Notes under the pieces: model-generated | What the model was told of the DNA's origin: nothing | Seen by the model: only the letters and a program-made list of their open reading frames with translations | Database searches by the model: none | Position numbers and translations under genes: made by a program | Shown: piece by piece, positions 14,519 to 39,416 of the stretch | Layout: each line of letters starts with the position of its first letter | How positions within the stretch are numbered: position 1 is the first letter of the stretch | Origin: Candidatus Micrarchaeota archaeon | GTDB taxonomy: Archaea; Micrarchaeota; Micrarchaeia; Anstonellales; Bilamarchaeaceae | DNA length: 64,000 nucleotides | Reading direction: 5' to 3' | NCBI GenBank assembly: GCA_016212505.1 | Contig: JACRGB010000003.1 | Location: forward strand, 27,561 to 91,560

Positions 14519-14568
14519 GGACAAAATTTCATAAATTTTGTCCGAATTGGAATTTATACAAATTCCAA
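14519..14568. promoter_or_regulatory. Two adjacent perfect palindromes upstream of dnaG (putative operator or structured element)
   Basis: GGACAAAATTT-cat-AAATTTTGTCC (14519-14543) and TTGGAATTT-ataca-AAATTCCAA (14547-14568). The same two motifs recur at 39280-39376. Confidence 0.4.
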
Positions 14569-14655
14569 TACGATAAAAAAACGAATGAAATTATAAAAAA
14601 AGAATTTATGAACGAAATGATGCGAAATATGAATAGAAAACAAAGGTGATTAACT

Positions 14656-17534: not shown

Positions 17535-17810
17535 ATGGAAAGGAAGAAAGTCATAGATATAGTAAGGAAAATTATGTCTAAAAGTCATATAAAAAGAGCC
17601 TACCTCTTCGGCAGCTTTGCCAGGGGACAAAAAAAATATAACGACATAGACATAGCAATAGACCCCCCGAAAGGCTTTACTCTGCTTGATTTGTCAAGAA
17701 TAGCCAATAGCATAGAAGATCAAACAGGACGTAATATTGATCTGGTTACTATTCGTGCAATGAACCCGAAGATTAAAAATGCCATCAAAAAAGAGATGGT
17801 AGCGATATGA
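17535..17810 (+). CDS. mnt: Nucleotidyltransferase (MNT) antitoxin
   Basis: 91 aa. YLFGSFARGQKKYNDIDIAID is the minimal nucleotidyltransferase G-S..D.D motif. Confidence 0.8.
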   Translation: MERKKVIDIVRKIMSKSHIKRAYLFGSFARGQKKYNDIDIAIDPPKGFTLLDLSRIANSIEDQTGRNIDLVTIRAMNPKIKNAIKKEMVAI

Positions 17811-18139
17811 GTAAGGATCCGAATTTTTATCTGGGTCATGTGATTGAAGCCATAGAAAAGATTCAGAAATACACTAAAGGTTTTGATAGATCAGATTTCT
17901 TAGAAAATGAACTGGTGCAGGATGCAGTAGTCCGGAACATTGAAATAATTGGAGAAGCAGTTAAGAATCTGCCAAATGACTTTAAGAAAAAACATTCAAA
18001 TGTCCCTTGGAGGGATATTGCAGGAATGCGTGACCGGATCGTTCATTTTTATTTTGGCATAGATTTCGAATTAGTGTGGGATACTATCGAAACGGACATA
18101 CCAGAACTTGAGAAAAAGATCAGTAAACTGATTAAATAG
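17807..18139 (+). CDS. hepT: HepT-like (DUF86) toxin
   Basis: 110 aa overlapping the MNT gene by 4 nt. C-terminal R-x4-HxY-like motif RDRIVHFYFGID typical of HepT. Confidence 0.8.
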   Translation: MSKDPNFYLGHVIEAIEKIQKYTKGFDRSDFLENELVQDAVVRNIEIIGEAVKNLPNDFKKKHSNVPWRDIAGMRDRIVHFYFGIDFELVWDTIETDIPELEKKISKLIK

Positions 18140-18164: not shown

Positions 18165-18680
18165 TTAACGATATAGCGCCACTTCCATCCAAGCAAGATA
18201 GGTCTTTTTTACTCCTTTTGAATCGTTGTAAATGGAAACTACGCGCCTTATTTTAACGACCTCGTTCGGCGCATCTGGCAGGTTGCCACCAATTGAGAAA
18301 ACGATTGGTTTTTGCGAATTTGAAGAATCGGAAAGTTCAGTTACATTGATCGAAACATTATACGGAGTTCCAAGCTTCTGCTTTAGCCAGTCCTGGTTAC
18401 CCTGGCCTTTCTTTAATGCACATTCCATAGTTGATGCATTTAGCCTTCGGTCGTCCACGCTGAGGGCAAAGCCTAAGCTTTCAAGGTCCTGGCAGTTAGC
18501 GGATGAGCCGGAAACAGAAAGAAGCTGGTTGGAAATGCGCACAGAGTCTTTGGAAAGTGATGCACCCTGATAATCAAGATAGTTCTTTACTGAGTGCCAG
18601 TATGAGAGCAAGGCAACAAGTGCAAGAACAAAGATTACAGAGGCAACAATTGCATCAAAACTGAAATATTGACCACGCAT
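18165..18680 (-). CDS. Archaeal type IV pilin-like protein (class III signal peptide)
   Basis: MRGQYFSFDAIVASVIFVLALVALL: a short basic N-terminus, G followed by Q, then a hydrophobic helix. This is the prepilin-peptidase processing pattern. Confidence 0.6.
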   Translation of the reverse strand: MRGQYFSFDAIVASVIFVLALVALLSYWHSVKNYLDYQGASLSKDSVRISNQLLSVSGSSANCQDLESLGFALSVDDRRLNASTMECALKKGQGNQDWLKQKLGTPYNVSINVTELSDSSNSQKPIVFSIGGNLPDAPNEVVKIRRVVSIYNDSKGVKKTYLAWMEVALYR

Positions 18681-19124
18681 TTATTCACCCTCAAGCTGTG
18701 ATATAGTTAATTTTTCACCGTCGTTATTTAATATTAGAAGGTTAGTGCATTTATTGCTTTGGATAATATATTGCCCAAGCTCCTGGGCAATGCACCCATT
18801 GCCATTATCAACTTGATAATCATAAGCAGGCACCTTATATGAATAACTAAAAGTTCCGTAAGGGCCCTGCCAATCAAGAACTAGGTTATAATTTTTATTC
18901 GGTAGGGTAATATTATAGGGATAACCAAGTATGGTTTTTGGGAAAGTATAGTTATAGGAAAATCCGCGGCCGCCCTGGACGCCAAGAGCAATTGCATTGG
19001 AAAACCCTTCACCAACGCCTTGCGCAACAGTATTTTGCCGTAGGGGAATTTCTGAGGATTGTATATTGTTAATGACAATAAAGGCAGCTATAACTAGCAC
19101 CATAAAAACAGAGATGTATAACAT
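18681..19124 (-). CDS. Small secreted/membrane-anchored protein of the pilin-like cluster (start uncertain; long ORF extends to 19355)
   Basis: The internal Met at 19124 gives MLYISVFMVLVIAAFIVINN, a hydrophobic anchor. The upstream 77 codons of the longer ORF run through a dense cluster of DNA hairpins, so they are probably not coding. Confidence 0.45.
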   Translation of the reverse strand: MLYISVFMVLVIAAFIVINNIQSSEIPLRQNTVAQGVGEGFSNAIALGVQGGRGFSYNYTFPKTILGYPYNITLPNKNYNLVLDWQGPYGTFSYSYKVPAYDYQVDNGNGCIAQELGQYIIQSNKCTNLLILNNDGEKLTISQLEGE

Positions 19125-19132
19125 GAATTCGG

Positions 19133-19281
19133 CAGCCACCTGTGCGCGCAGGTGGCTGGCAGCGAACGGAGTTCGCTCAACCGCGACTTGCCCACGCAAG
19201 TTGCGGGCATGGCAAGAAATACCTTGTATTTCTTGACAGTCTTGAACGGATCGCCGTTCAAGGACAGAAAACGAAGTTTTC
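19133..19281. repeat. Tandem cluster of at least 6 short GC-rich hairpins/inverted repeats between pilin-like genes
   Basis: cagccacctg-tgcgcg-caggtggctg (19133-19158); cgaac-gga-gttcg (19163-19175); gcgacttg-cccac-gcaagttgcg (19183-19205); caagaaata-cctt-gtatttcttg (19213-19235); cttgaacgg-atcg-ccgttcaag (19241-19262); gaaaac-gaa-gttttc (19267-19281). Also an imperfect direct repeat ctcaacCgcgacTtg / ctcaacAgcgacCtg. Confidence 0.5.
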
Positions 19282-19341
19282 TCAACAGCGACCTGGCCTC
19301 GAAAGTAGCTGACTTGCGCCTTTTTAGAATTGTTTTTTTGT

Positions 19342-19776
19342 TTAACCTGGTGCACTAAGTTCCACCTTACCGTTATTGTTCACCAGAGTAATTGGTAGAA
19401 GTCCGCTCTTTGCCTTAAGGTTCTGCTCGTAGTAGTTATTTTTATTATTACTAGAGATATTCGCGATCGTTGGGGAAACTGCCTCAAAATTACCTGACGA
19501 GGTTTTTATGGTGATAATGATTTCGCCACTTTTAGCCTGGAGAGATTCTGTGGACGAAGGAAGGTTCAGTACGACAACGCGCTTTGCACCATTTCCCTGC
19601 GCAAAAACAAAATCAGCGGCTTCAGCTAGAGAGCGGCTCGATGATTCTGCCTGGGCCTTGGCAGTATTCTCATAACCTACTGAATTTAGCGAGAATAAAA
19701 GGAACAGGACCGGCACGGTAAATGCTAGCACAATTGCGATTGTGACAAAAAGTTCCATTGAAGATTGGCCCTTCAT
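19342..19776 (-). CDS. Archaeal type IV pilin-like protein (class III signal peptide), candidate major subunit
   Basis: 144 aa starting MKGQSSMELFVTIAIVLAFTVPVLFLLF. The hairpin cluster follows it on the transcribed strand. Confidence 0.6.
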   Translation of the reverse strand: MKGQSSMELFVTIAIVLAFTVPVLFLLFSLNSVGYENTAKAQAESSSRSLAEAADFVFAQGNGAKRVVVLNLPSSTESLQAKSGEIIITIKTSSGNFEAVSPTIANISSNNKNNYYEQNLKAKSGLLPITLVNNNGKVELSAPG

Positions 19777-21392
19777 TGCTTACACCCCGCACCGCTTTTG
19801 CATGAAAGTGGATCCAAAACATAGTCCTTTATTGCAGTATCGCTGAGGGTAAATATTCCAGTTGTAGGGCTATCCGAACACACTTCGGCATTTCTGCAAC
19901 CAGGAAGGCCACGAAGCGGGGAGTATACTGGTTGTGAGCTAAACAGCTCGCGATCGAGCCTGCTGCGGCCAAATAAGACCTTATTTGAATATTCACCGAC
20001 GACAAAAGTTTCGATACCGAATTTCTTATCAGATAAAGAATATGAACCAACCATAAGATGCTGTAAATAGGATGGCGCTTTTTCATTGTGGGTATAGTAG
20101 CCACACATTACAAAATCACGCAGCGGCTCGATATTGAAGATCCCTGTTGAGGAATCGGATTTGTACGTTTTCTTATCCGGATCGCTCAAAACATCGGATG
20201 GAGAGGATTTAGCGATTATAAGAGCACAGCGGCGCTGTTTGGTAGGGTCTGATGAGGAATCAGGACAAATGCCTGCAGAAAGCGGATCAAAGCCAAACGA
20301 AATCACAAATGGTTTTCCCATATAATCTGGGCCGCCCCATTTTATTGGTTTGCAGTTCTTATCATACTTAAGGGGGTTGAACGTAGTTGCAGGATCCTCA
20401 TCTTGCTTAGGGCAAAGGGAAGGAGGTTCAAGGAGGGGATTGGAAGTAATGATGTAGCCTCCAAAAAGTTTATAGATTTCTGGTTTAAGCTTGATTATAT
20501 CATCATATTTACCGACAATTATGTATTGGCTGGCATTGCCCAGAACTTCTGGATCCTTTGCGAATTTGACTGACGGATCATTACTGGGAGTTGCACTCGC
20601 CAGATAACCGTAAAACCATCCCTGGCCTTCTTCGCTTGGTTTAATTTGACTAACAGATACTTTTGATTTATCAGGATACTCGCTCGTGTTAAAGAAAAAT
20701 TGCCTTCCAAAGTGCTGGTTTAAATTTGAGTCTATACTTGCCTTTGCAAGGGCAGGATCAATCAGTCCGGTAACCTCAAGATCCCCGCTAAGAGGATAAG
20801 TCCTTGAAACTGAGGAACTATTCGAAGTATCTTTTAATTCCAAATGAAGGACCAGAGAATAGTTGACTTTGTCAATAGCGCTTTGGTTTAATGCGAAACC
20901 GGAAATTTGGTAAGAGCTGACATAAACTCCGGTTGAAAGCAATGAGGCATTTAGGCCACTTATCCAGGCAGTAAGGGAAGAATTCTCATTGGAGGGATTT
21001 GCCTGATCAGGCGGAAGCCCCTGGAAATCCTTTTTATCTGCAACTCCGCTCAGCAGCATCTGGTACATGGCATTTCTTATGTGGATGTTTTGGTCATTAT
21101 CCGGGCCTTTCAATAGAGGATATTGTATTGCATTTTGGTTTAGCTTGAAGAGGTTTCGGGCCATTATCTCATGTGTAATATTTCCGACTTTGGCTGGAGT
21201 TATCTGGCTGATTGCAAGCTCAACTGCAGATTGCTTATAGAAATCTGAAAATGAGCGCTCGGATGTTTCCACTGCCTTGACCCATACGGATATGGAAAGC
21301 AGGATGTATGCGAGAATAAGGAATACGGTAACGGTAAAGAGGAACCCTTTCCGGTCATTTTTTTTGTTATTTGTTTTCTTATTGCTGCGCAT
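19773..21392 (-). CDS. Large pilin-like/adhesin-like secreted protein with N-terminal hydrophobic anchor
   Basis: 539 aa. Basic N-terminus (KKTNNKKNDRKG) then FLFTVTVFLILAYILLSI. Many N-x-S/T sequons. Overlaps the next gene by 4 nt. Confidence 0.6.
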   Translation of the reverse strand: MRSNKKTNNKKNDRKGFLFTVTVFLILAYILLSISVWVKAVETSERSFSDFYKQSAVELAISQITPAKVGNITHEIMARNLFKLNQNAIQYPLLKGPDNDQNIHIRNAMYQMLLSGVADKKDFQGLPPDQANPSNENSSLTAWISGLNASLLSTGVYVSSYQISGFALNQSAIDKVNYSLVLHLELKDTSNSSSVSRTYPLSGDLEVTGLIDPALAKASIDSNLNQHFGRQFFFNTSEYPDKSKVSVSQIKPSEEGQGWFYGYLASATPSNDPSVKFAKDPEVLGNASQYIIVGKYDDIIKLKPEIYKLFGGYIITSNPLLEPPSLCPKQDEDPATTFNPLKYDKNCKPIKWGGPDYMGKPFVISFGFDPLSAGICPDSSSDPTKQRRCALIIAKSSPSDVLSDPDKKTYKSDSSTGIFNIEPLRDFVMCGYYTHNEKAPSYLQHLMVGSYSLSDKKFGIETFVVGEYSNKVLFGRSRLDRELFSSQPVYSPLRGLPGCRNAEVCSDSPTTGIFTLSDTAIKDYVLDPLSCKSGAGCKQ

Positions 21393-21405
21393 GGTTAACT
21401 ATCAC

Positions 21406-22056
21406 CTAAATGAAAATGGTTAATTTTACCACCCGGGGATTAAGGGAAGGCACAACTTCAGGATTTTTGAGGTTGTCATTTACCGAATTCCCGCAGGTAA
21501 GCAGTCCATAGCCGCCATTGCAGCTGTTATAGGAATATTTTGAAGCTGGAGGCTTGGTTGATTTGCCTGAGCCAAAAGTAACTACTTGGGATGAAACAGA
21601 AAGCTTTCTGCTTGATTTGGCGTGGCTCTCATACTGATCATTTATCGCCTCAGCACTTGAAGTATCATAGAGCGTAGCCCAAGTCTTGCCACCATCACCG
21701 CTAAGTTCGACACGATAACCATATTGGGGAGGAATTAGCACCCCGATGGTATTTTTTATCATGTTTTTGTTGGCATTGTTTGGATTGCCTAAATCATTTG
21801 AAGCAAGATCATCCAGAAGACTTATGCTGTTTTTAGTTTCCTTATCATAACCAGTACAGCCATATGAGGGCTGGGTATATTGGTCACACACCGAAGATGA
21901 TAGGGAGATAAGGACATCTTTAGAGAGGTAGTGGGCCTGGGTGAGAAGGTAATAGTAAGATGAGGGGATGCTTGAGAAGAAAATTAGCGAATAAATTGCG
22001 ATAAGGGCCAAAGTAAATGCTACGAAAGAGTCGAGTGAGAATATGAATGCCCGCAT
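21406..22056 (-). CDS. Archaeal type IV pilin-like protein (class III signal peptide)
   Basis: 216 aa starting MRAFIFSLDSFVAFTLALIAIYSLIFF. Confidence 0.6.
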   Translation of the reverse strand: MRAFIFSLDSFVAFTLALIAIYSLIFFSSIPSSYYYLLTQAHYLSKDVLISLSSSVCDQYTQPSYGCTGYDKETKNSISLLDDLASNDLGNPNNANKNMIKNTIGVLIPPQYGYRVELSGDGGKTWATLYDTSSAEAINDQYESHAKSSRKLSVSSQVVTFGSGKSTKPPASKYSYNSCNGGYGLLTCGNSVNDNLKNPEVVPSLNPRVVKLTIFI

Positions 22057-26515: not shown

Positions 26516-29500
26516 CTATCTAGATGCACGCAATGCTTTTTCCGCCATAGCTTGGGCATCAGGGAGAATATCAGCCCAGATATTTTGGAAACCGTCTTTG
26601 CCACCTATAGTAAGCAAGTGACTGAATATATCCGTTGCTTCAGGTGCATCAAACACGACACGACCATGCCGATCAGCCATAACATAATCACGCTGACCAT
26701 TTATCGGCATACCGACCATCACCTGCGGAGGGTCTCCCTTTTGGCCGCCCGCATAGTATGCTTCAATTTCTTTTATCGCAGTTGGGGAAAGTGATTGCCC
26801 AGCTCCAACCATCTGGCCATCATTTTTAGCAAAAGCAGTCACCAGGTTGCGTTCAAAATCAGGGGTACTCCCAACTTCAGTATGCCATTTTTTAGCCCCC
26901 TCTTTTATGGAATGGGTTGCTGATTGGGCCACTTCAGAAACGGGGCGGCCAGACAAACGCGCAAGGCTTATAAAAACTGGAGCTAAATCTTTTGAATATT
27001 GGGGGATTAGGTGTTCTTTGGAGGAATAAAGTTCATATCCCCCTCGTGTATTTTTAGTTACCCGAAAATGGCCTGCGGCATCAGTATCTATCCGCCCGAT
27101 TTTGAATATTGCAGACTCTCCCCTAACATCTACAACAGTATAACCTTCACTCTTAAGTAATGCAACCTTTGAAGGAGGCACTTTCAGCAACATACCCTGA
27201 AGGTTTCCAGAATGATTATCCCAGGAACCTCCCATCATGAGTCCAGTGCATGCATAACCAATTTCCTGATGAACTACCTCGGGATGTTCTTTATAAAATT
27301 TGGTTAATTCGGTATTGCCTTTCATTCTAGATAAACTAGCTGCTTCCATAGTTGAAGTTTGAATTGGTTCACCCCCAAGGTTGAGAGTACCGCTAAAGTA
27401 TTTGATATGGTCTATCAAACCCCATTTAACCGCCCCACCCTCCGGAGAGGAGAACGTAAGCGGTTTACTATTTGATTCGCTAACCACTCCGGCAGTTGGA
27501 ACATTTGCTATTTGCCCGGTTTTTGCCCCGAAAGCAGCAGGCCGTAAATCCTCGGCTTTTGCAATAAATGCTCGCTCTTCACCCGAAGGGGCAACTACTT
27601 TTATCTCGTACGCTCCAACCATACCATCATGGCCGATTATCCGAGTAATTTTACTGCCTTCTGGAACTTTGGCAAGGACAGTTTCAGAAAGATTACCGGA
27701 TAATAAAAGAGATCCGATTGTAGAAACCTGCTGATGATAGTTACCCGACCTAGGATCAAAAGAATGAGAGTAGAGTCCTTTTTTCTCTAAATAAGAGCTT
27801 ACATCAGCCACAGCCGCTTCATTGCTCTTTGCATTAAGATAGACATTTTTTAATTCACCTGAAGATAAGCCAAGTGCTTTCTCAGATGCAGGCACTCCCT
27901 TAAGGTTTTCCAAATAAGTTGCAGCCGAGTGTTCTCCGGCAAGAGTTAGAGTTCTGATGCTTTGTTCTTGTTGGGCAGGAGGAGCTGCTAAAAATGACTC
28001 TGCGGATTTTGTGCGTTCTGTGACGGCTGGGGATCTTAATGATGCTCCTAATTTCTGTGCCTCTGAACGCTCTGCGCCAGTGAGTTCGTGCTGCTGCGCA
28101 CGAGGTTCAGCTGGAGTTTCTAATGCCCGAGGCAATTCTTGCACCGGAACTGCACGTTCTTGAGCCGGAGAATGCCCCGTGGCTTTATTAAGTTCAACAA
28201 CCTTTGGCGCAGTCGTCAAGGAGGTGCGTTTCTTTATTTCACTATCAAGACCATTTGCAGCCTTTTCTAATGCAACTGCCAAAAGAGGATTTGTTTTTTG
28301 ACCGCTTTCTTTAGGGGGATTACGCCAGAACTTTGCTTCATCTCGCAAAGAGCCGGCACGCTCGGATAGCTCCCCAACTTCGATTTTAGGGTTATCAATC
28401 AAACGTTGGGTCTGGAGCTTTGCCGTAGCCTCAAGGGTCACGGAGTCATTCTGCAACTGGGGAATATGCCCTTCATATATGGCCAAACCCGCTTCGTTTA
28501 ATGCGAGATTAAATTCTTGGTTTTGCCTTGGAAGTCTTTCGGTTCCGGAAACGTGTTCCCGATAAGATCTGGCGAGATTGCCTGCAGCACGGGCAGTCCG
28601 TTCTGCTTCTCCCACACCCATGCCCGAATTGATCAAACGATCCTTAAGTTCGGAAAATGCACTTTTCTCTGCGAATTTATGTGCCTCTGCTGCGACCTGT
28701 TCTTGAGGAAGAGGTTTTGCGGATTGGTCAGAGGGATGCGCCAATTCGAATTCCGCAGCTCGCCTAACCGTTTCAAATTTTTCATTAATTGCTCTAGCGT
28801 GAACATCAAGTGCACTTGCAAGTTTTACCTGCTGCTCCCGCACAGGTATTGCTTCTGCGCCTTTTCCTAGGGTATAGACAGTACCTTCTGGAGAAACGGA
28901 ACTATCTGAAAATCGCGACCGAAATCTTGTTTCATTACGAGTAAATTCAAAGTTAGGAGTTTTGAATCCATCAAAAAGTGAGACGGGTTGGCTGCTGGTT
29001 TTTTCCTGAGCCACTAAAACATCCGCACTTTGACGCAATTGCTTTGCGTCAGCAGTAAGTTGTGCAGCCCGATCTTCGAGTACTTGCGCCCCTGCAGAAT
29101 CCCCCTGGCGGTTCAATCTTCGCATTTCTGTTAATGCGTCTGTTGCTTGGGCAGTAATATGATCTGCCTGAGCAAGCAATTGTTGCGAACTTGGAACTTC
29201 TGCTTGATGGGCCATAGGCCGTACTGGAGCTGCTGACCTATTCGTCCGTTCAACTGCCAAACGCCTGGAGATGGCTCTGGAAAAATTAATTCCAAATCGG
29301 CCAACTGCACCAACATCAATACCAGCATTTGCATAAACTGGGGTCCGGTCTACGGCCTCGACAAAAGCAGCCCCAAAAACTCTAGCCCCGAATTTTACTT
29401 TATCAAAACCCTTACTCGCTGCTGATTTAGTTTTGTCTTTAGCAATCCGTGCTGCTTCTCCGGCGGTTTCTGCAGCTACGGCCATTCTTCCAACAACCCG

Positions 29501-32137
29501 CTCAGGCATAGCAACTTGAACATTAGGCCCAGTAGTGACTTTTGGGGCAGATTTTCTAGAGTTAACCGTAATTTCTCCGGAAACAACATCTCCTGCATTA
29601 ACTCCTTGAGGCATCCGGCTAGCCATAGAGTTTGGAATTTTACTTTGAGGCAGTTTCAAGGTTGGAATTTCGAAAGTTGATCCGAAGGCAGCAGTGCGCA
29701 CTTTACTGGAAAAACCTTCAATAACAAATGAGCTGGTCCTCCTATAAGAGGATTTAGCCAGATTAAAAGCACTTTTACGTGAATGCCACAAGGGCAGTGC
29801 ATTATAGAGCAAATCAGCCCCGCCACTTGCCCAGTCACCTTGACGGATCTGACTATACGCGCTACCAACTCCTTCTACAGAAAAACCGAGATTGATACCC
29901 GTTTCTGCCACCCTAAATGCCACGCCGGCATGGCCTAAATTAAACGCATTTGCAGATCCTTTGAGAAGCGGGTTAAATCTAAGCCCAACTACGCTAGTGA
30001 TAAGCATGAGTTGGGTTTTCCACGAAACATCCCCGGTAAAGTATTGCTCCCGAGCAGCGCCCCGGAATGCACTTGCAACACCAAAAAATTGGCCGATAAC
30101 CGGAATAAATGCAACTAGCCTCTCGGCCCATTCATTCAACTTATCTGCAACGTGCATTTTATGTTTTAGTTCATCAAATCGGATTTGAAGCTCTTCCCCG
30201 GCCTGATCAGCAAGTGCCTGAGCACGGTAATTCTGCTTAACTCCGCTATAATATCCTATCAGCTTTTTTGATTGGGCAACAATGGCATCTTGGAGCTTGC
30301 CTTCACCAACTGCAAAAACACGGGAACTTGAGGTGCACACGGAAGCTTCAAAGCGGGCCATAACTTCTGCAAGTTTCTGGTTGTTTTTATCAAAACCCTT
30401 CCCTTCCAGATGTTGATCAAGCAAATGCAACGAAGCATCCATAAAAAATCCAAAATTATTTCTCACAGGATCTATTTTCCCGCTCCTATCAAGAAGGGCA
30501 GCTGCAGAAGCATTGTATTGTTCACCCATCGAACGGGTATCTATCCGAAGCATATTCATTGCAGCGGCCTTAGCCCTAACCGCATCCGTGAATGATCGCC
30601 TGACGGTTTCAGACATTCCTCCAGAAAGATAGGAACTTAGGGCAGCATCATAGGATTTTCTCATAGTGTCAAGACTTTCCATACCGCGAAATTCTTTGGT
30701 TTCTTTCCAGTCGCCCTGACGAACTGCCTCGTAATATCCTGAAGCATTCCTGGTTTCATTCATCAAAAAGATCCCGGTAGAGACAAAAGCAACGGCTTCG
30801 TTTCTGGATTTATAAAATTCTGCAATTTTAGCACTGGCTGCAGATAAATCAGAAAGTTTTCCGCTTTTTTTTGCTTTTTCTATTTCACCCTTAAGTTTTG
30901 CAGATTCTGCCTCTACAGATTCTAATCGTGCAATGAATTTTGGGATTTCATACCGAAATGAGTCTCCAAACTGTGAATGTACGAATTTCTTTAGTTCATC
31001 AGTACTGGCCAATTCGCCCAATTGTTTTTCCTGTGCATTTACATATTCGAGTTGTTTTTTTGTTATGAACTCATTGGTTTTTTTATCAAACTCAGGAAGT
31101 AGTTTGTTTACCTTAGCAACATCTCTTTTTTCTATAGCCAATTTCACTTCATCAAGGGATTTTTGAAGCTCGGGGATTTCGCCGTAACTGGCAGATAGTT
31201 GCATATATGCTTCTCTGCGTTGTTCCAGAACAGATTTCGTCGTAGGAATTTTGCCGTCCTTATCTTTCTTGCCAGGCTGTGGCTGCGTAAGGCTAATACA
31301 ATATTTTGCATCCTCAAATTTTTTCATGCCATGTGCAAATGCAGCTTCTGCATTCTGAATATCGCCCTTAAGGTGTAATGAAACTGCTTCTTTTAGGTCG
31401 TCTAGGCCGTCTGATTTTTTTATGCCCTTAATATTTAGGGCATCTTCGTAACTCATAAGGCGGTCAAGTGCAGCATCTGCTTGGGCAAAGATTTGGTGTG
31501 CTGATTGTGGATTTTTTTCTTCTGGTGCAGAATCATAAAGTTTTTTGATTTGTAATGCAGCACTTTTGATGAAGGGGTCAGATGAGGCCAGAAGTTTTGG
31601 AACAGTGGAACGAAAATCACCGAGTGCTTTTGACTGCTCTACTTCATTAACACGGGAATTCATCTGCCCGATAAGTGCCCCTGCAGCGCCTCTTAGACTA
31701 TCATCAACCTTGTTTTGTTTAAACTGTAAAAGTAAATAATCAGTTTGGGACTTAAACTGCTCAAAAAGATTTACAGAGTGATCAGCTGGATCGATTTTGG
31801 CTTTCCCTAAGTCATTCATACGGGTAAGCAACTCCGCAAGTGCAAGGCAAACCTGCCCATTTGCATAACTAACATCGGTTAGGCCTTCTTTTTGAGCGCG
31901 GACAAAAAAAGCATTAGCCCGTTTGCCGAGTTCACTTACGCGCACATCGTCAGATCTCGCATACCCTCTTGCAGAAGCCCTTAATGCGTCAGGAGCACTG
32001 TTCAGCTTAACATCTTGAATATCTTTAATGGCAGTCTCTTGTGCACGGGCAGCAACTGCACCTAATACGGGGGCAAGTGCACTAACTTGTCTTGTCGGGT
32101 CATTTTCCTGAGGGTTGTAGAAGTGGGGCATAGGCAT
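26516..32137 (-). CDS. Giant (1873 aa) signal-less, largely helical protein with a central hydrophobic hairpin, a Gly/Ala-rich region and a C-terminal PI3K/PI4K-like kinase catalytic core; candidate effector/toxin
   Basis: Uninterrupted 5.6-kb ORF. It appears GC-richer than its surroundings. There is no N-terminal signal peptide. The first ~670 residues are K/E/A/Q-rich and coiled-coil-like. Hydrophobic segments lie at residues ~673-693 (LVAFIPVIGQFFGVASAF) and ~708-720 (QLMLITSVVGL). Residues 725-960 are G/A/S-rich. Residues 1524-1691 carry FIAKAEDLRP (Lys motif), GSWDNHSGN (D-x-H-x-x-N catalytic loop) and IDTDAAGHF (DFG-like). The Lys-to-DxH spacing of ~115 aa matches PI3K spacing. Confidence 0.85.
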   Translation of the reverse strand: MPMPHFYNPQENDPTRQVSALAPVLGAVAARAQETAIKDIQDVKLNSAPDALRASARGYARSDDVRVSELGKRANAFFVRAQKEGLTDVSYANGQVCLALAELLTRMNDLGKAKIDPADHSVNLFEQFKSQTDYLLLQFKQNKVDDSLRGAAGALIGQMNSRVNEVEQSKALGDFRSTVPKLLASSDPFIKSAALQIKKLYDSAPEEKNPQSAHQIFAQADAALDRLMSYEDALNIKGIKKSDGLDDLKEAVSLHLKGDIQNAEAAFAHGMKKFEDAKYCISLTQPQPGKKDKDGKIPTTKSVLEQRREAYMQLSASYGEIPELQKSLDEVKLAIEKRDVAKVNKLLPEFDKKTNEFITKKQLEYVNAQEKQLGELASTDELKKFVHSQFGDSFRYEIPKFIARLESVEAESAKLKGEIEKAKKSGKLSDLSAASAKIAEFYKSRNEAVAFVSTGIFLMNETRNASGYYEAVRQGDWKETKEFRGMESLDTMRKSYDAALSSYLSGGMSETVRRSFTDAVRAKAAAMNMLRIDTRSMGEQYNASAAALLDRSGKIDPVRNNFGFFMDASLHLLDQHLEGKGFDKNNQKLAEVMARFEASVCTSSSRVFAVGEGKLQDAIVAQSKKLIGYYSGVKQNYRAQALADQAGEELQIRFDELKHKMHVADKLNEWAERLVAFIPVIGQFFGVASAFRGAAREQYFTGDVSWKTQLMLITSVVGLRFNPLLKGSANAFNLGHAGVAFRVAETGINLGFSVEGVGSAYSQIRQGDWASGGADLLYNALPLWHSRKSAFNLAKSSYRRTSSFVIEGFSSKVRTAAFGSTFEIPTLKLPQSKIPNSMASRMPQGVNAGDVVSGEITVNSRKSAPKVTTGPNVQVAMPERVVGRMAVAAETAGEAARIAKDKTKSAASKGFDKVKFGARVFGAAFVEAVDRTPVYANAGIDVGAVGRFGINFSRAISRRLAVERTNRSAAPVRPMAHQAEVPSSQQLLAQADHITAQATDALTEMRRLNRQGDSAGAQVLEDRAAQLTADAKQLRQSADVLVAQEKTSSQPVSLFDGFKTPNFEFTRNETRFRSRFSDSSVSPEGTVYTLGKGAEAIPVREQQVKLASALDVHARAINEKFETVRRAAEFELAHPSDQSAKPLPQEQVAAEAHKFAEKSAFSELKDRLINSGMGVGEAERTARAAGNLARSYREHVSGTERLPRQNQEFNLALNEAGLAIYEGHIPQLQNDSVTLEATAKLQTQRLIDNPKIEVGELSERAGSLRDEAKFWRNPPKESGQKTNPLLAVALEKAANGLDSEIKKRTSLTTAPKVVELNKATGHSPAQERAVPVQELPRALETPAEPRAQQHELTGAERSEAQKLGASLRSPAVTERTKSAESFLAAPPAQQEQSIRTLTLAGEHSAATYLENLKGVPASEKALGLSSGELKNVYLNAKSNEAAVADVSSYLEKKGLYSHSFDPRSGNYHQQVSTIGSLLLSGNLSETVLAKVPEGSKITRIIGHDGMVGAYEIKVVAPSGEERAFIAKAEDLRPAAFGAKTGQIANVPTAGVVSESNSKPLTFSSPEGGAVKWGLIDHIKYFSGTLNLGGEPIQTSTMEAASLSRMKGNTELTKFYKEHPEVVHQEIGYACTGLMMGGSWDNHSGNLQGMLLKVPPSKVALLKSEGYTVVDVRGESAIFKIGRIDTDAAGHFRVTKNTRGGYELYSSKEHLIPQYSKDLAPVFISLARLSGRPVSEVAQSATHSIKEGAKKWHTEVGSTPDFERNLVTAFAKNDGQMVGAGQSLSPTAIKEIEAYYAGGQKGDPPQVMVGMPINGQRDYVMADRHGRVVFDAPEATDIFSHLLTIGGKDGFQNIWADILPDAQAMAEKALRASR
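27000..27900 (-). other. PI3K/PI4K-like (atypical lipid/protein kinase) catalytic domain within the giant protein
   Basis: Codons 1524-1691 map to ~27065-27568. rc(27541-27580) encodes ERAFIAKAEDLRP. Motifs are described in the parent feature. Confidence 0.4.
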
Positions 32138-32146
32138 TACCGATAA

Positions 32147-32422
32147 TCAGGGAGAAGGCAACTCACGACAGAGTTCATCCAAAACGCCAAGACTTTCTGA
32201 AATAAGTTCTAAATCAGTACTATTGCCATAAACATCTCTCCAGTATTCCAGTGCGCTTTTCCATTTTTCAAGCCGTACGAGTTCTTCAGGAGGAGTTTTG
32301 GACTTAAATTTAGGGTTATTTAGGTTTAATGCGATGGATATTGACTTAATACTTTTATCAACTCGGTAGATAGAATTACCGTAAAGTTTGAGCAATTCGG
32401 AATCTAAATTCTGATCTGCCAT
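32147..32422 (-). CDS. Small acidic cytosolic protein, translationally coupled to the giant gene (possible chaperone/adaptor)
   Basis: 91 aa. Its stop lies 10 nt upstream of the giant protein start codon. No TM. Helical and acidic composition. Confidence 0.5.
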   Translation of the reverse strand: MADQNLDSELLKLYGNSIYRVDKSIKSISIALNLNNPKFKSKTPPEELVRLEKWKSALEYWRDVYGNSTDLELISESLGVLDELCRELPSP

Positions 32423-32495
32423 AATTGTGGTATCACAGAACGTAAATAAAAAACCACCTTATGAGTAGGACTCAATGGACCCATAATAAAAAGAC

Positions 32496-33596
32496 CTAGA
32501 TCAGTTTCACCAGTCCCCTTCCTATTTCCGGGATGTTTCCCCCAAATAAGTTCGCTGCGTTAAGGGTGAATGTCATAAATACCACCATTGCGATTAATGG
32601 GAAGAGGCAAATTGCTGAAAGCAGATGGAGGGCAAGATCCGAAAGATGGTAGGTCACCAATTCAGTAAGCTGGCCATAGTTTGCTCTTAATCGGACTACG
32701 GATTCGCTTAAGCTGCCGACGCTGGGGCTCTGGCAGGCATAAGTTGAAAGATCATCTGGAACAGATGGAAGCATGCAGTCGTATTTGAACGAGCTTTCAA
32801 GGGGCGCGGGATTTGGGTTTGCAACAAGCAGAGAGGTCTGCACATGGGGAAGCGACATAGTTGCCACTAGGATATAAGTAAGGGGAAATACGAAATATAT
32901 GCCTACTGAAATTGCCATCATAAATGCGCCGGCACCGCGCACTGGGGGAAAGGCACGGAGTGCAACCCCAACAGAAAAGAAGAAACCAGCATAATATTTG
33001 ATGAAGGTGAAGGTATGGACAATAAGATAATACATGTACATGTAAAATGACATTGATTTTGTTGCGGTTGCAATTCTTTCTGAAAGCCATTTTATACCAA
33101 ATCCCGAGGCCACTTCGGACATGAAAATTTCCATATAAACAGATGAAATGGCCTCCACAGGGATGCTGAGGCCATAAAGGACTTTCATAAAACCGCTAAC
33201 GCATCTTGCCGGGGTTTCCATATAAAGGATCATCCAGTCGATGAGCGTGTTTTGGCTAAATACCACGCCATTCCAGGGAAAATCGTTCGAGTTGAGCTGG
33301 AAGGTAGAAAGATAAAGTGACTTTGCAACAGAACTGTGGAGTCCTGGCAGGGGCGCTCCTTGGGCAAGCAGGGGTTCGCCAACCTGGGCAAGCGCGGCCA
33401 CCATAATCACAATAAGCACGGTGGATACTGCATAAACAAATTCCGTTTTCGCTGTCTGCTCGAGGTTACGTAGGGAAAAGAGCCGGGAAAACATAATCAG
33501 CATGGCAGCAACTACTACTGATAGTGATGCTGCGGCAACCGCAAGCAATTCCCAGCCTGCATAGAAAGACGAACAGAAAAAAGTTGTACAAACCAT
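32496..33596 (-). CDS. Polytopic membrane protein, paralog family member P1 (366 aa)
   Basis: Shares the N-terminal motif (SRLFSLRNLEQTAKTEF), the loop motif ALRAFPPVRGAGAFMMAISVGIYFVFP and the C-terminal ...GNIPEIGRGLVKLI with the five upstream paralogs. Confidence 0.7.
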   Translation of the reverse strand: MVCTTFFCSSFYAGWELLAVAAASLSVVVAAMLIMFSRLFSLRNLEQTAKTEFVYAVSTVLIVIMVAALAQVGEPLLAQGAPLPGLHSSVAKSLYLSTFQLNSNDFPWNGVVFSQNTLIDWMILYMETPARCVSGFMKVLYGLSIPVEAISSVYMEIFMSEVASGFGIKWLSERIATATKSMSFYMYMYYLIVHTFTFIKYYAGFFFSVGVALRAFPPVRGAGAFMMAISVGIYFVFPLTYILVATMSLPHVQTSLLVANPNPAPLESSFKYDCMLPSVPDDLSTYACQSPSVGSLSESVVRLRANYGQLTELVTYHLSDLALHLLSAICLFPLIAMVVFMTFTLNAANLFGGNIPEIGRGLVKLI

Positions 33597-34847
33597 CTAG
33601 ATCATCCTCGTTAATGAACTTATATCTACTTCTTCGCCGAAAATTGCGCTGAACCTCCTTGCAGCTTCAATAAACACAAGGACATTTAGGGCAGGGGCAA
33701 GAAACGCGAATAAAAATGCAAGTGCTACCACGGAAATTGGGATCATTATAATTATTGTAAATGTATCCCCAACAATGGACTGGAGGATGGAGCCAACTCC
33801 GCCATAAGTACCGCTTACAATGTCAGTAATGCCTCCATTGCCAAAACCTTTGGAGAAAAAATCGCTTGCATGCTTCATGAAACCGCCCGGGGTCAGGTCG
33901 CTAAAGAAATTGCGGAGGAAATCTGTCCAGTTAACTAAAGGATTCCCAAGACCGCTTAACATGACACTAAAGGTAAGGACGGTAAGGAGGGGAAATACAA
34001 GGAGGAATGCTGCGGAAATCCCAATCAGGGTCCCTCCAACCCTCCGGGTCGGGGTAAAGCAGCGGAGGAAAATACCTGCTGGCAGATAATAGTGAAGGAA
34101 TGCCTGTAATGAAAATAGGTAAACAAATAGCTGCGCATACATTATGATATATGCAACAGATAATGCAACCGACATATTATACAGCAGTTGTTTTATAGGG
34201 GAGAAAAATCCTGCAAAGGGAGTTGCTACAAGCCCAACGCCAAGAGGCCGGGCATAGGGAGTAACCGAAGCGAACTGGTCTACAATCACATTTAGCAGGT
34301 AGCTCATATCCAGCCAACTGCCGACATAGTATCCACCAAGTTCAAAAAATGCCCCTGCGACCTTATATACTGAATCTCCGGCCACAACACCAGTAAAACC
34401 AGAACCTAGTGGAGTTGCTTTTGGGAAAAAGTCTTCTGGAAGGGAGGATCCCATATCAATATTTGCAAGGACAGCAATTGAGCCCAAAATGATAACTGCA
34501 AGAAAACCGGAAATGACAAGTTCGAGAAGTTCCTGCTTTACGAAATTTATGACCATCTGGTTCCTTAGCAGGGTACCAAAAATATAAAATAATGCAAGAA
34601 GCACTGCTGAAACCATTAAAGCTAAACCCGATGGGGCAACCCAGTCCCACATGCCGGCAAACTGGGTGGAAACTATTGAATCAGCATCAAGCTTGAACAT
34701 TCCTGCAGTTCCCTGCGGGGGGGAGGGGTTTTGGAAAGGCGGGGCCTGCACACAGCCCGAGCTGATAAGAAATAGGAAAATGGCGGCGAGGAGGATGAAT
34801 ATTTTGGTTTTTTTGTTGCCGATCATACGCATAGTAAATCTCCCCAT
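33597..34847 (-). CDS. Polytopic membrane protein, paralog family member P2 (416 aa)
   Basis: Motifs GTLLRNQMVINFVKQELLEL and FLRCFTPTRRVGGTLIGISAAFLLVFP. C-terminus EEVDISSLTRMI. Abuts P1 with no gap. Confidence 0.7.
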   Translation of the reverse strand: MGRFTMRMIGNKKTKIFILLAAIFLFLISSGCVQAPPFQNPSPPQGTAGMFKLDADSIVSTQFAGMWDWVAPSGLALMVSAVLLALFYIFGTLLRNQMVINFVKQELLELVISGFLAVIILGSIAVLANIDMGSSLPEDFFPKATPLGSGFTGVVAGDSVYKVAGAFFELGGYYVGSWLDMSYLLNVIVDQFASVTPYARPLGVGLVATPFAGFFSPIKQLLYNMSVALSVAYIIMYAQLFVYLFSLQAFLHYYLPAGIFLRCFTPTRRVGGTLIGISAAFLLVFPLLTVLTFSVMLSGLGNPLVNWTDFLRNFFSDLTPGGFMKHASDFFSKGFGNGGITDIVSGTYGGVGSILQSIVGDTFTIIIMIPISVVALAFLFAFLAPALNVLVFIEAARRFSAIFGEEVDISSLTRMI

Positions 34848-36110: not shown

Positions 36111-36111
36111 A

Positions 36112-37611: not shown

Positions 37612-37652
37612 ATTGCATCCTCAGAGGTTTACTCATAAATTCTTCAAAATAC

Positions 37653-39416
37653 CTACATTTTCATCAGTATAAATTTCGTCATCGCATTTATGAATGCTAT
37701 AGTGACCATAATTGAGAGTGCGGGCATAAATAATGATAGAAGGGTAAGTACCGCAAAGTGCCGCATGATTATTGTAAATTCCGGCATGGGCAGGAGCCCC
37801 AGTACCCCTTCTGAGAAAAAATTACCCAGTGACTTTTGCACCGCAGTCCCTTTGGGAAGGTATTCGAATATTTTCCCCGGTGCAGTAGCGGGATTAAAGA
37901 AATAGCCAAATGCACCGTATTTTACCGGCCCGCATATTGAGTAAATTAAGGTGTTGGGGCTTTGGTATCCCGAAGGCCCAAGGTCCTCATACGCTTTCTT
38001 ATCGATCAGATAACCCATCGGAAAAACAATTTGGAAGCCTAATGCAAATGCCATAAGGAATGCACCTGCATCGCGGGTGGGCGGGAAAAAGTGCAGGATA
38101 AGCCCCGCAGGGAGGAAAAAATTACCCATAGTAGAATCTATGAAATAGAGAAGGCTGATTTGCGCAGATAAGCTGCCATAAACAGCTACGAGCCCATAGG
38201 AAAGGACATTGGAAATAGAAACAAAAGTATCGATTCCAGGAAAAACCTTATAGGTACGGGTAAGCACGGATTCTCCGATCCTTCTTGCATAAACGCTGAG
38301 CATGGAAGTGCAGGACTGTATCGAGTAAACATCATATATGCCGTTTAGTACTGGATCAAGTGCCTTCTCTTGCAGGAAATTTATTGCGGCAAGGGAAGGC
38401 GAGTTGGTATGGTAAGCATCATTTGCCCAAGCTGAAACGATCTGGCTGCCTACAACGAAAAGTCCTGCCACAAAGAGGACAAGAAGGAATGAGCGGAAAA
38501 GGTTGGAAAGTTCGACATTGAGGTAGCCCTCCCATTCAGGAACCCGGAAAACTTTTGAAACTATATAAGTCAGGAAAATTATCAGGGAAACAAAAAAGAA
38601 TACGTTGATCATCAGGTCAGCGTAGGGAGAAATGGATGCGGCAGTGCCTATTTTTGTCTGAAGTATCGAATCAAATGCGCCACCTTTAGCTAAAAAGACC
38701 TTGAATACGACGAAATAGACTATTGCTACAATAAAAGTACTTGCAAGGAGATTATTCGCAAATCCGGTTGCCCTGGCCCGGGTTTCTGCGCCAAACATCA
38801 TCCCGGCAGCATAGAAAACCGCTGCAAGAATAGCAAAGACGATTGTCAGGAATGCAAGTGAATTTTCGGATATGGTTTTTAGGTCGCTGAAGATTTTTAA
38901 GAAATCGACGGATGATGGCTCGCCACCGGCATTAAGGCTGGGCTGGATGATCGAGAGGAGGAAGAACATTATGATTATTACTAACGCCGAAACACCAACC
39001 GCAGTAAGCATGCTTTCAGTCCAGGTAGATGCTTTTGCTCTTAAGTCTGCACCAAACATCTGGCCAATAACATAAACTGAAGCCGCTATTACGATCATGG
39101 TGATTAGGAGAATCCCCATGACAGAAAGGGCAAAGGGAAGTAGGGAATTAGGGGAACTGTTAAGGGCGGATAAGGGATCAATTGGTGGATTGGCGGCAAA
39201 TGAAAATGAGGGCAGGAGTAGCGATAGAAATAGCACAAGCAGGAAGAGCGAGAAAGGAGTTTTTATGTTTTTTATTATATTGGAATTTGCAAATTCCAAT
39301 GCGTGGAGAAATTCTTTGGAATTTCTCCTGTAGCGAACCGTGTTCGCTACGGACAAATTTTTGCGAAAATTTGTCCTTGTAGTCTTCGTGAAGTCCATTA
39401 ATAGCACCCTTTTCAT
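37653..39416 (-). CDS. Polytopic membrane protein, paralog family member P5 (587 aa; 5' end doubtful)
   Basis: Motifs GQMFGADLRAKASTWTESML and LILHFFPPTRDAGAFLMAFALGFQIVFP. Lacks the GLTR-type C-terminal tail. Its first ~45 codons are made of four tandem DNA palindromes (see repeat feature). Confidence 0.65.
   Translation of the reverse strand: MKRVLLMDFTKTTRTNFRKNLSVANTVRYRRNSKEFLHALEFANSNIIKNIKTPFSLFLLVLFLSLLLPSFSFAANPPIDPLSALNSSPNSLLPFALSVMGILLITMIVIAASVYVIGQMFGADLRAKASTWTESMLTAVGVSALVIIIMFFLLSIIQPSLNAGGEPSSVDFLKIFSDLKTISENSLAFLTIVFAILAAVFYAAGMMFGAETRARATGFANNLLASTFIVAIVYFVVFKVFLAKGGAFDSILQTKIGTAASISPYADLMINVFFFVSLIIFLTYIVSKVFRVPEWEGYLNVELSNLFRSFLLVLFVAGLFVVGSQIVSAWANDAYHTNSPSLAAINFLQEKALDPVLNGIYDVYSIQSCTSMLSVYARRIGESVLTRTYKVFPGIDTFVSISNVLSYGLVAVYGSLSAQISLLYFIDSTMGNFFLPAGLILHFFPPTRDAGAFLMAFALGFQIVFPMGYLIDKKAYEDLGPSGYQSPNTLIYSICGPVKYGAFGYFFNPATAPGKIFEYLPKGTAVQKSLGNFFSEGVLGLLPMPEFTIIMRHFAVLTLLSLFMPALSIMVTIAFINAMTKFILMKM
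39280..39376. repeat. Four tandem perfect palindromes at the P6/P5 junction, two of them the same motifs found upstream of dnaG
   Basis: TTGGAATTT-gc-AAATTCCAA (39280-39299); GGAGAAATTC-tttg-GAATTTCTCC (39305-39328); TAGCGAAC-cgt-GTTCGCTA (39331-39349); GGACAAATTT-ttgcga-AAATTTGTCC (39351-39376). Confidence 0.55.

Follow-up and report, generated by a model that had tools for sequence, protein, structure and literature searches.

A putative long class III leader made of tandem, hairpin-forming repeats in a pilin-like gene of a Candidatus Micrarchaeota archaeon

Introduction

For type IV pilins and archaeal pilin-like proteins, the usual description of the leader is a short tag with a single site. 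Class III leaders range from a few to about 30 residues and, to our knowledge, carry one cleavage site each. The leader of such proteins is expected to be removed by a peptidase of the A24 family (PMC4858521, PMC4390842), and in Methanococcus the recognition by EppA maps to positions -2 to +2, with Gln at +1 being essential (PMC4390842). Here we analyze a stretch of 64,000 nucleotides (nt) from a Candidatus Micrarchaeota (DPANN) archaeon (assembly GCA_016212505.1, contig JACRGB010000003.1, positions 27,561 to 91,560), referred to below as the window and used for all coordinates, in which the 5' part of a minus-strand pilin-like gene, 18681..19355(-), is occupied by an array of hairpins. The encoded protein shares with EppA-type class III leaders (Gln at +1) a basic residue at -2, Gly or Ala at -1, Gln at +1, Glu at +5, a hydrophobic N-terminal helix and a location within a pilin-like gene cluster. 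It differs from them in that its predicted leader is 71 residues long, that the recognition site is repeated two to three times (relatives have up to three extra intact copies), and that the repeats are at the same time conserved hairpins. Literature searches returned no report of tandem sites or of hairpin-encoding class III leaders, and the locus introduces a DPANN pilin-like family whose recognition sites are tandem and selectively maintained.

Other described systems resemble this locus in part. Untranslated intercistronic stem-loops, such as the malE-malF repetitive extragenic palindrome (REP) and the puf operon hairpins, set differential expression within operons, and tandem-repeat propeptide precursors are known from yeast alpha-factor and the neuropeptide polyproteins. 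The window array is likewise a stable series of hairpins at a cistron boundary in an operon whose subunits are needed unequally, but, unlike REP and other intercistronic stem-loops, it lies inside a translated leader and is also constrained as peptide, and its function here is putative. Like the propeptide precursors, it has repeated processing sites parted by short peptides within one precursor; however, its repeats stand ahead of a structural protein, on the N-terminal side, the hairpin dictates the peptides between the sites, which are for that reason poorly conserved, and no released peptide is known.

Rickettsia palindromic elements (RPEs) are short hairpin-forming palindromes that lie in frame within protein genes and are translated without destroying the protein (PMC10969869). 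RPEs and transposable elements of the miniature inverted-repeat type (MITEs) share with the window array their nature as in-frame, translated palindromes, but RPEs, of about 150 bp, are dispersed over many unrelated genes as families that keep the sequence of the element, whereas the units described here are local tandem copies of the host gene's own cleavage-site codons and were found, in the sequences searched, only in the leaders of two pilin paralogues. A mobile element of the MITE or RPE type was rejected, since no dispersed copies and no terminal inverted repeats were identified in the sequences searched, the inserted hairpins of the window are unique, and the arrays copy the site of their host gene. 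Hairpins that arise by template switching are characterized by perfect Watson-Crick stems, multi-base "compensatory" changes and the one-step appearance of new perfect hairpins (PMC8794818). The window array has these traits, but template switching is a mutational mechanism rather than a function, and it leaves the peptide conservation and the synonymous bias reported below unexplained.

Results and discussion

Hairpin array inside an open reading frame

We consider it very probable that the array consists of translated leader repeats with conserved hairpins. In plus-strand coordinates it spans 19133-19282 and comprises six abutting hairpins, whose stems measure 10, 7, 11 (one G.T), 10, 9 and 7 bp and whose loops have 3-6 nt. 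A previous sequence-only reading of the window had reported six consecutive stem-loops, and all six are present, with stems of 7-11 bp. The first, H1 (19133-19158), has 10 perfect base pairs, or 13 with one G.T, and pairs S-H-L codons with those for Q-V-A in the true cleavage site. It is followed by H2 of repeat unit 2 (19161-19177), a 7-bp stem (AGCGAAC/GTTCGCT) with a 3-nt loop that encodes E-R-T-P-F-A, and by H3 (19181-19206), with a stem of 11 nt that includes one G.T (91% complementary) and joins A-R-N-L codons to the G-Q-V-A codons of unit 2; both have covariation support. The next two hairpins, at 19213-19235 (10 bp) and 19241-19262 (9 bp), belong to a 57-nt insertion. The sixth is H2 of unit 1 (19266-19282), again a 7-bp stem (AGAAAAC/GTTTTCT) with a 3-nt loop, which encodes E-K-T-S-F-S and is likewise supported by covariation. 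A seventh, degenerate hairpin lies at about 19285-19318.

These structures clearly exceed what chance would give. The surrounding 251-nt region folds at -88.2 kcal/mol on the minus strand (z = -4.4) and at -97.6 kcal/mol on the plus strand (z = -5.1), and none of the 200 dinucleotide shuffles made for each strand was as stable. Perfect hairpins with a stem of at least 7 bp number 42 in the whole 64-kb window, five of them within the 150 nt of the array. The GC content of the array is 53% and that of the window 41.7%, the latter in place of the value of about 38% given before for the genome. The imperfect direct repeat noted earlier is real and forms part of a 52-nt repeat (19160-19211 versus 19265-19316) with 73% identity, between whose two copies the 7-bp H2 hairpin has been preserved through a double compensatory change (AGCGAAC/GTTCGCT versus AGAAAAC/GTTTTCT). 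With just these two copies, with every hairpin different, and with the region coding, the array is, as had been concluded, not one of clustered regularly interspaced short palindromic repeats (CRISPR).

The array constitutes the 5' part of the open reading frame (ORF) 18681..19355(-), which the National Center for Biotechnology Information (NCBI) annotates as the same product of 224 amino acids (aa), HY988_00700. As stated in the sequence-only reading, it begins just past the stop codon (19342-19344) of a 144-aa pilin-like gene; it is nevertheless not intergenic, as it falls within the ORF that follows, and this ORF and the 144-aa gene share 14 nt. The peptide repeats GQVAVEKTSF and GQVAVERTPF are found within this ORF, also as claimed. 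The predicted leader coding region, 19143..19355(-), has 71 codons, is made of repeat units and holds all the hairpins reported before. From its 5' end it contains a degenerate distal copy of the cleavage site, K-K-A-Q-V-S (19308..19325(-)); the site copy of unit 1, R-G-Q-V-A-V-E (19281..19301(-)), whose differences from the true site are at third codon positions, plus Gly/Ala at -1; a lineage-specific, in-frame insertion of 57 nt or 19 codons (19209..19265(-)) with two unique hairpins; and the canonical 48-nt unit 2, R-G-Q-V-A-V-E-R-T-P-F-A-A-S-H-L (19149..19196(-)), a covariance-model match of 79.7 bits. The true class III site, R-A↓Q-V-A-A-E (19128..19148(-); the arrow marks the predicted cut, between 19143 and 19142), follows, and then the predicted mature pilin-like protein (18681..19142(-)), with a long N-terminal helix and a beta domain.

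The class III signal

The protein has 68 homologues, and those with a named source all come from Micrarchaeota/Micrarchaeia or Ca. Ainarchaeum. In an alignment of 25 of them the block Q-V-A-x-E-F-M-L-Y has invariant Q72, A74, E76 and F77 and is preceded by [KR]-[GA]. The sequence R-A↓Q-V-A-A-E of the window protein accordingly carries all elements of the class III motif (basic -2, Gly/Ala -1, Gln +1 of the EppA type, Glu +5), which is also found in the loci fetched for comparison. In the AlphaFold2 model, residues 1-66 are predicted to be disordered, with a predicted local distance difference test (pLDDT) score of about 50 and no secondary structure. Residues 67-127 then form a helix, nine strands make up a beta domain, and in the mature region the score exceeds 90 for most blocks of 10 residues. 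The predicted layout is that of a pilin "lollipop", with the hydrophobic helix placed directly after the site.

The globular part of the AlphaFold2 model had no significant Foldseek match in the Protein Data Bank (PDB), no curated pilin or class III model of Pfam reached its threshold (the only hit was DUF7266, at 15.5 bits against a cut-off of 27.6), and a six-frame regular-expression scan of the window returned no GxGD-type peptidase motif. By motif, hydrophobic helix, predicted fold and gene neighborhood, the protein fits the definition of a class III signal peptide.

Evidence that the repeats are translated

Many homologues have one to four further copies of the motif [KR]-G-Q-V-A-x-E-[KRG]-T-x-F-[SAP]-A-x-N/H-L upstream of the site. 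For comparison we fetched 42 genome loci, 55 metagenome loci and two more (given L numbers below), among which 21 distinct arrays were found and analyzed. Their leaders have one to three extra units, the canonical unit being 16 codons or 48 nt long and units with inserts 90, 96 or 105 nt. The suggestion that the array might be a small repeat element in a pilin-like operon stands, in the form of in-frame 16-codon units within a leader. Among motif copies detected at the DNA level up to 400 nt upstream, 22 of 24 share the frame of the true site, with spacings that measure 48, 90, 96 or 105 nt, and the two out-of-frame copies sit further upstream, outside the leader ORF. Over the 1638 nt of arrays, frame 0 has no stop codon and the other five frames have 4-26, and all indels seen (48, 57 and 96 nt) are multiples of three.

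The codon positions point in the same direction. In the alignment of 18 canonical units that was used for entropy, pairing and covariation, the first two positions of the upstream G-Q-V-A codons have zero entropy (bar one Ala-for-Gly change), whereas the third positions have 1.0-1.8 bits. A first count of differences by codon position, 78:4:0 (third, second and first), is partly circular, since the copies had been chosen by the motif, and was superseded by one in which a unit was called solely by a perfect 7-bp stem and a 3-nt loop, in any frame. Of the 19 perfect H2-type hairpins, 18 have G/A-Q-V/A-A at a fixed offset and in frame, and the units so detected show 50 differences from their own true site, 46 at position 3, four at position 2 (all Gly/Ala at -1) and none at position 1. 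Third positions differ in about 64% of comparisons with the true site, which rules out recent duplication or gene conversion as the source of the identical amino acids. The sequence-only reading had taken the peptide repeats for an artefact of the DNA repeats; they are not, given that [KR]-G/A-Q-V-A is conserved while third positions are near saturation, in a frame free of stops.

What is conserved is also specific. Over 30 upstream copies, -2 is Arg or Lys in 29, -1 is Gly or Ala and +1 is Gln in all, and +2 and +3 are kept as well (29-30 of 30), whereas Glu +5, invariant at true sites, is found in only 20. As positions -2 to +3 are kept, Glu +5 is less so, and EppA specificity covers -2 to +2, the conserved block corresponds to the peptidase-recognition block of the Methanococcus system. 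A leader-only consensus of three to four units had no match at E <= 0.01 among 5.8 billion proteins, the query being too short for a database of that size.

A start codon is available ahead of the repeats. The prepilin probably starts at a GTG (19353..19355(-)); between the first repeat and the stop that precedes it in this frame, no other in-frame start codon is present. A Shine-Dalgarno-like AAGGTGGA at 19361..19368(-) falls within the codons for G-[EK]-V-E-L, the conserved C-terminus that the upstream gene encodes; the 14-nt overlap with that gene suggests translational coupling. In all 13 array loci examined, an in-frame ATG, GTG or TTG precedes the first repeat shortly 3' of a GGAGGTG-type motif, which sits where the preceding gene encodes its conserved C-terminal G-E-V-E-L, with that gene's stop codon at or just beyond this start. 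Together, the open frame, the multiple-of-three spacings, the third-position bias and the start codon before the arrays examined indicate that the repeats are translated and selected as peptide. An internal TTG start (the Leu of N-L-R-G-Q, which would give an M-R-G↓Q leader) was rejected as a general explanation, the first base being C in 10 of 18 units.

Two observations touch on the start region. The upstream protein's conserved G-[EK]-V-E-L is encoded by GGNGAGGTGGAG (19361-19376, with equivalents in L003-L093), which doubles as the Shine-Dalgarno-like motif. Separately, one NCBI product (P0026) starts at an internal Leu (TTG) of an array, and in L004 the frame is open for two more units upstream. 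For annotation, this means that hairpin arrays taken as "intergenic" in compact genomes can be translated, and that gene callers pick inconsistent starts in such leaders.

The sequence-only reading had instead favored control by mRNA structure, which would make the array an untranslated intercistronic RNA structure, a 3' stabilizer or partial terminator after the major pilin gene, with the long ORF an artefact and the downstream gene starting past the array, possibly at Met-19124. The hairpins do begin directly after the stop of the 144-aa gene, they are stable and covarying, and in this genome AT-rich hairpin elements of an unrelated kind follow closely 3' of stop codons, namely at 14519, 39279 and 60799. 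Against it stand the peptide-level selection, the open frame through the array and the indel lengths; no start codon with a ribosome-binding motif lies between the array and the cleavage site; and Met-19124 is residue +7 of the mature protein, 3' of the cleavage site and within the family-wide QVAxEFMLY helix, and therefore cannot be the start. There is no U-run after the hairpins on the minus strand, and in other genomes the same kind of array precedes the mature part of the 144-aa paralogue, in that gene's own leader, which does not fit a spacer after the major pilin gene. Rfam 15 at gathering thresholds has a single match in the whole window, a 5S rRNA at 57946-58060, and a local search at E <= 1 added two chance-level matches that lie outside the array save for a 9-nt overlap at its edge; a scan of the window for tRNA and tmRNA found none. 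We regard an untranslated structure as the least probable of the readings considered, and as highly improbable.

Constraint on the hairpins

Each unit carries two hairpins, namely H2, whose 7-bp stem and 3-nt loop lie within the E-x-T-x-F-x codons, and H3, in which the x-N/H-L tail codons pair with the Q-V-A codons of the next unit. In the 18-unit alignment, 90.4% of cells are paired, compared with 73.6% in shuffles and 29%-43% for slid partners, and 11 of 18 pairs have changed on both sides; some units share ancestry, so that these cell counts are not independent events. H2 is paired in 96.8% of cells, with six of its seven pairs covarying, and the covariation is visible in the peptide E-[KRG]-T-x-F-[SAP], where K goes with S, R with A and G with P. 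In H3, variation is confined to the synonymous sites of Q, V and A and the partner arm tracks them, as a result of which N/H-L is preceded by G, S or R (codon NGC) and N alternates with H. Where a lineage has Q-A-A at the true site, its upstream copies read Q-A-A as well, and N gives way to S in the partner arm.

Synonymous codon choice gives a similar picture. Native arrays are more stable than the mean of their codon-permuted synonymous versions in 21 of 21 cases, and for the window array none of 200 codon permutations was as stable (z = -4.9). Neighboring copies use different Gln codons in 22 of 30 comparisons (p = 0.016). A hairpin at the true site itself (stem of at least 4 bp) is present in 11 of 14 array loci versus three of 54 array-less loci. 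The earlier claim that the structures are non-random thus gains support from covariation across genomes, and, judged from these sequence comparisons, the hairpins are under selection in their own right. The locus is a natural case of double constraint, with one arm held by selection on the protein and the residues of the other (G/S/R-N/H-L) set by the synonymous sites of the first, and is useful for studying how structure and coding coexist and what template switching and selection each add to compensatory change.

Proposed role and points against it

We favor, with moderate confidence, the explanation that the 5' end of 18681..19355(-) encodes an unusually long class III leader of tandem units that is potentially cleavable at several sites and whose hairpins tune expression or stability. 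Each unit would serve twice, as a peptide that restates the prepilin-peptidase site ([KR]-[GA]↓Q-[VA]-[AS]) and as a nucleic acid that forms two hairpins. Translation would begin at GTG 19355, coupled to the upstream gene, and the ribosome would read through the array; the leader would then be removed at R-A↓Q (19143/19142), so that the mature pilin-like protein would be the same at any copy number. On the polycistronic mRNA, the hairpins could act in cis as a copy-number-tunable brake or stabilizer at the cistron boundary, while being placed in a part of the protein that is discarded anyway. Because every unit keeps a peptidase site, extended leaders would remain processable and may be cut at several sites, and the arrays would grow and shrink via recombination between units and gain new in-frame hairpins. 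Cleavage, at the true site as at any other, and the role of the hairpins in expression or stability are deduced from sequence.

Several observations weigh against this explanation. The hairpins start more than 50 nt past the start codon, so that they cannot block initiation directly, and any effect would have to be on elongation, mRNA stability or coupling. Prepilin peptidases work at the membrane face beside a hydrophobic segment, and the upstream sites are without such a segment. About 70% of orthologues have neither an array nor a true-site hairpin, and the array is therefore dispensable for pilin function. Pairing is near-strictly Watson-Crick (270 of 288 core cells), with eight A.C as against two G.U among the transition mismatches of the sense strand, and the antisense strand folds slightly better in 14 of 21 arrays, by a mean of 2.6 kcal/mol (p = 0.013). 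Such a pattern would be unusual for selection acting on a hairpin of the sense mRNA and agrees with hairpins that arose, or are maintained, at the DNA level through template switching (PMC8794818).

The same biases could be read as a function at the DNA level or in antisense, in which the hairpins would form on the template (plus) strand, as single-stranded DNA during replication or transcription or as antisense RNA, and the coding strand would merely accommodate them. Most mismatches are A.C in sense and hence G.T in antisense, the antisense folds are the more stable in two thirds of the arrays, and T-runs (TTTTT, TTTTTTT) follow the array on the plus strand at 19322-19340; the corresponding sense-strand bases form the Lys/Asn-rich start of the leader (19318-19345). 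Furthermore, the antisense reading of 16 of 18 H2 loops is G-N-A, a loop class known for very stable DNA mini-hairpins. The biases are small, however, and confounded by codon constraints, as the loop encodes Thr-Ser/Pro and perfect pairing of the Val codon GTC would need an Asp in a basic leader. Strict pairing, A.C bias, antisense stability and G-N-A loops would fit either template switching (PMC8794818) or folding of the other strand, with that confounding in both cases. No plus-strand promoter or gene is evident nearby and nothing demands such a function, which we consider very unlikely.

The conserved recognition block could also be taken at face value. In a genuine multi-site prepilin, the peptidase would cut every [KR]-G↓Q-V-A copy, and either leader peptides of about 16 residues that begin with Gln would be released, or the extra sites would compete for or hold the peptidase. 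With the same codons constrained as hairpins, and the x-N/H-L arm evolving as the reverse complement of the protein-constrained Q-V-A arm, the coding segment would be under double constraint, by peptide and by nucleic-acid structure, within a reduced DPANN genome. Upstream cleavage would then yield peptides such as QVAVERTPFAASHLRA. The motif copies suggest that the upstream sites may be recognized, and perhaps cut, by a prepilin peptidase, although we judge this full version of multi-site processing unlikely. The arrays offer a new test of the rules of archaeal prepilin peptidases, namely whether a site is cut when no membrane helix adjoins it.

Distribution and copy-number dynamics

Arrays were found in 21 of 73 unique orthologues and are scattered over the family tree, only 10 of the 21 array loci having an array-bearing nearest neighbor. 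Copy number changes between close relatives: unit indels separate strains that are 95%-98% identical, L005 and L070 (95% identical) differ by exactly 48 nt, and L048 and L058, which come from one metagenome and are identical in their flanks, differ by exactly 96 nt. The 57-nt insertion of the window array is missing from the otherwise collinear array of L100. Looking for other copies of the individual hairpins in the window and the fetched loci gave a divided result, in that the stems of this insertion occur nowhere else, whereas H2 of unit 1 has an identical copy in L100 and L018. New structure has also been gained elsewhere, as a related 48-nt insert with two hairpins (GGGAAC-TTC-GTTCCC and AAGTGC-GCG-GCACTT) sits inside the H2 loop of L004 (4004-4099) and L008 (4037-4132), in frame in both, with a predicted three-way junction. 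At the distal end of the arrays, the last copy has often degenerated in its motif as well as its hairpin (KKAQVS in the window, HGRVAV in L048, KGRAAM in L020; also in L011).

A few other genomes show the same architecture in the leader of their 144-aa paralogue, where it copies that gene's own site (KGQASIERTSFSARRL↓KGQASMELL in L073; RGQVSLE...↓RGQVSLELL in L072), although it is rare in that family. Strong covariance-model matches over 590 kb fall solely in the leaders of these two pilin paralogues; the E-values of the model are rough.

Such dynamics would also be expected of a tolerated selfish or neutral repeat, that is, an in-frame palindromic minisatellite that replication slippage and template switching both create and repair and that persists only thanks to its place in a discarded leader, its hairpins and extra sites having no function. 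The patchy distribution, the unit indels between close strains, the lineage-specific hairpins and nested insertions (L004, L008) and the degenerate distal copies all suit it, as does the fact that each array copies its host gene's own site, whether of the QAA, QAS or QVS type, and the near absence of G.U pairs is what templated inverted copying predicts (PMC8794818). Neutral decay, however, should affect all codon positions, whereas the differences are distributed 46:4:0 with third positions so far diverged; the H2 stems of a single genome differ at several paired positions and are still almost fully paired; codon choice favors folding in every array; and neighboring copies tend to differ in their Gln codon. 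The need for an open frame would account for the absence of stops but not for the conservation of -2 to +3. We hold a tolerated repeat to be possible, though not probable, and continue to prefer a selected leader with functional hairpins.

Operon setting

The prepilin gene is the fourth of five consecutive minus-strand ORFs (18165-22056) whose N-termini combine [KR][GA] with a hydrophobic stretch and are class III-like, namely MRA↓FIFSL, KG↓FLFTV, MKG↓QSSMELFV, ...RA↓QVAAEFMLY and MRG↓QYFSFD, and this gene order is also found on related contigs. The upstream gene (19342..19776(-)) encodes the 144-aa protein with the N-terminus MKG↓QSSMELFV, which the sequence-only reading took as a candidate major subunit and which has no Pfam match; its homologues are 137-158 aa long, and some are named "UPF0333 family" by JGI. 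The gene that follows the prepilin (18165..18680(-)) encodes 171 aa with the N-terminus MRG↓QYFSFDAIV and matches DUF7287 at E = 6e-5, under the curated cut-off. A nucleotidyltransferase/HepT-like (MNT/HEPN) pair, assigned by Pfam, adjoins the pilin operon on the opposite strand at 17535-18139(+).

Other elements in the window

Further along the minus strand, the region 26516-40690 holds large ORFs of 1873, 366, 416, 420, 499, 587 and 425 aa without a Pfam match, which by their position may be surface proteins.

A second, unrelated family of AT-rich hairpins occurs in the window at 14519-14569, 39279-39376 and 60799-60847, in each case within about 20-40 nt after a stop codon. The copies share the modules ATTGGAAWT..AWTTCCAAT and GACAAATTT..AAATTTGTC, which at 39305-39350 are parted by additional hairpins. 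Both modules, again flanked by TTTTTTATTATATTGG, follow the last pilin-like gene on a different, GC-richer metagenome contig (L063, 1881-1931). Such elements may mark 3' ends or act as terminators in a conserved manner, or they may bind a protein. One AT-rich array (39279-39416(-)) lies within the annotated N-terminal extension of ORF 37653..39416(-), in frame and free of stops, and directly precedes a Sec-type signal peptide (KNIKTPFSLFLLVLFLSLLLPSFSFA). A TTG inside the last hairpin may be where this ORF truly starts, and the ORF is a second case of hairpins at or in a cleavable signal region.

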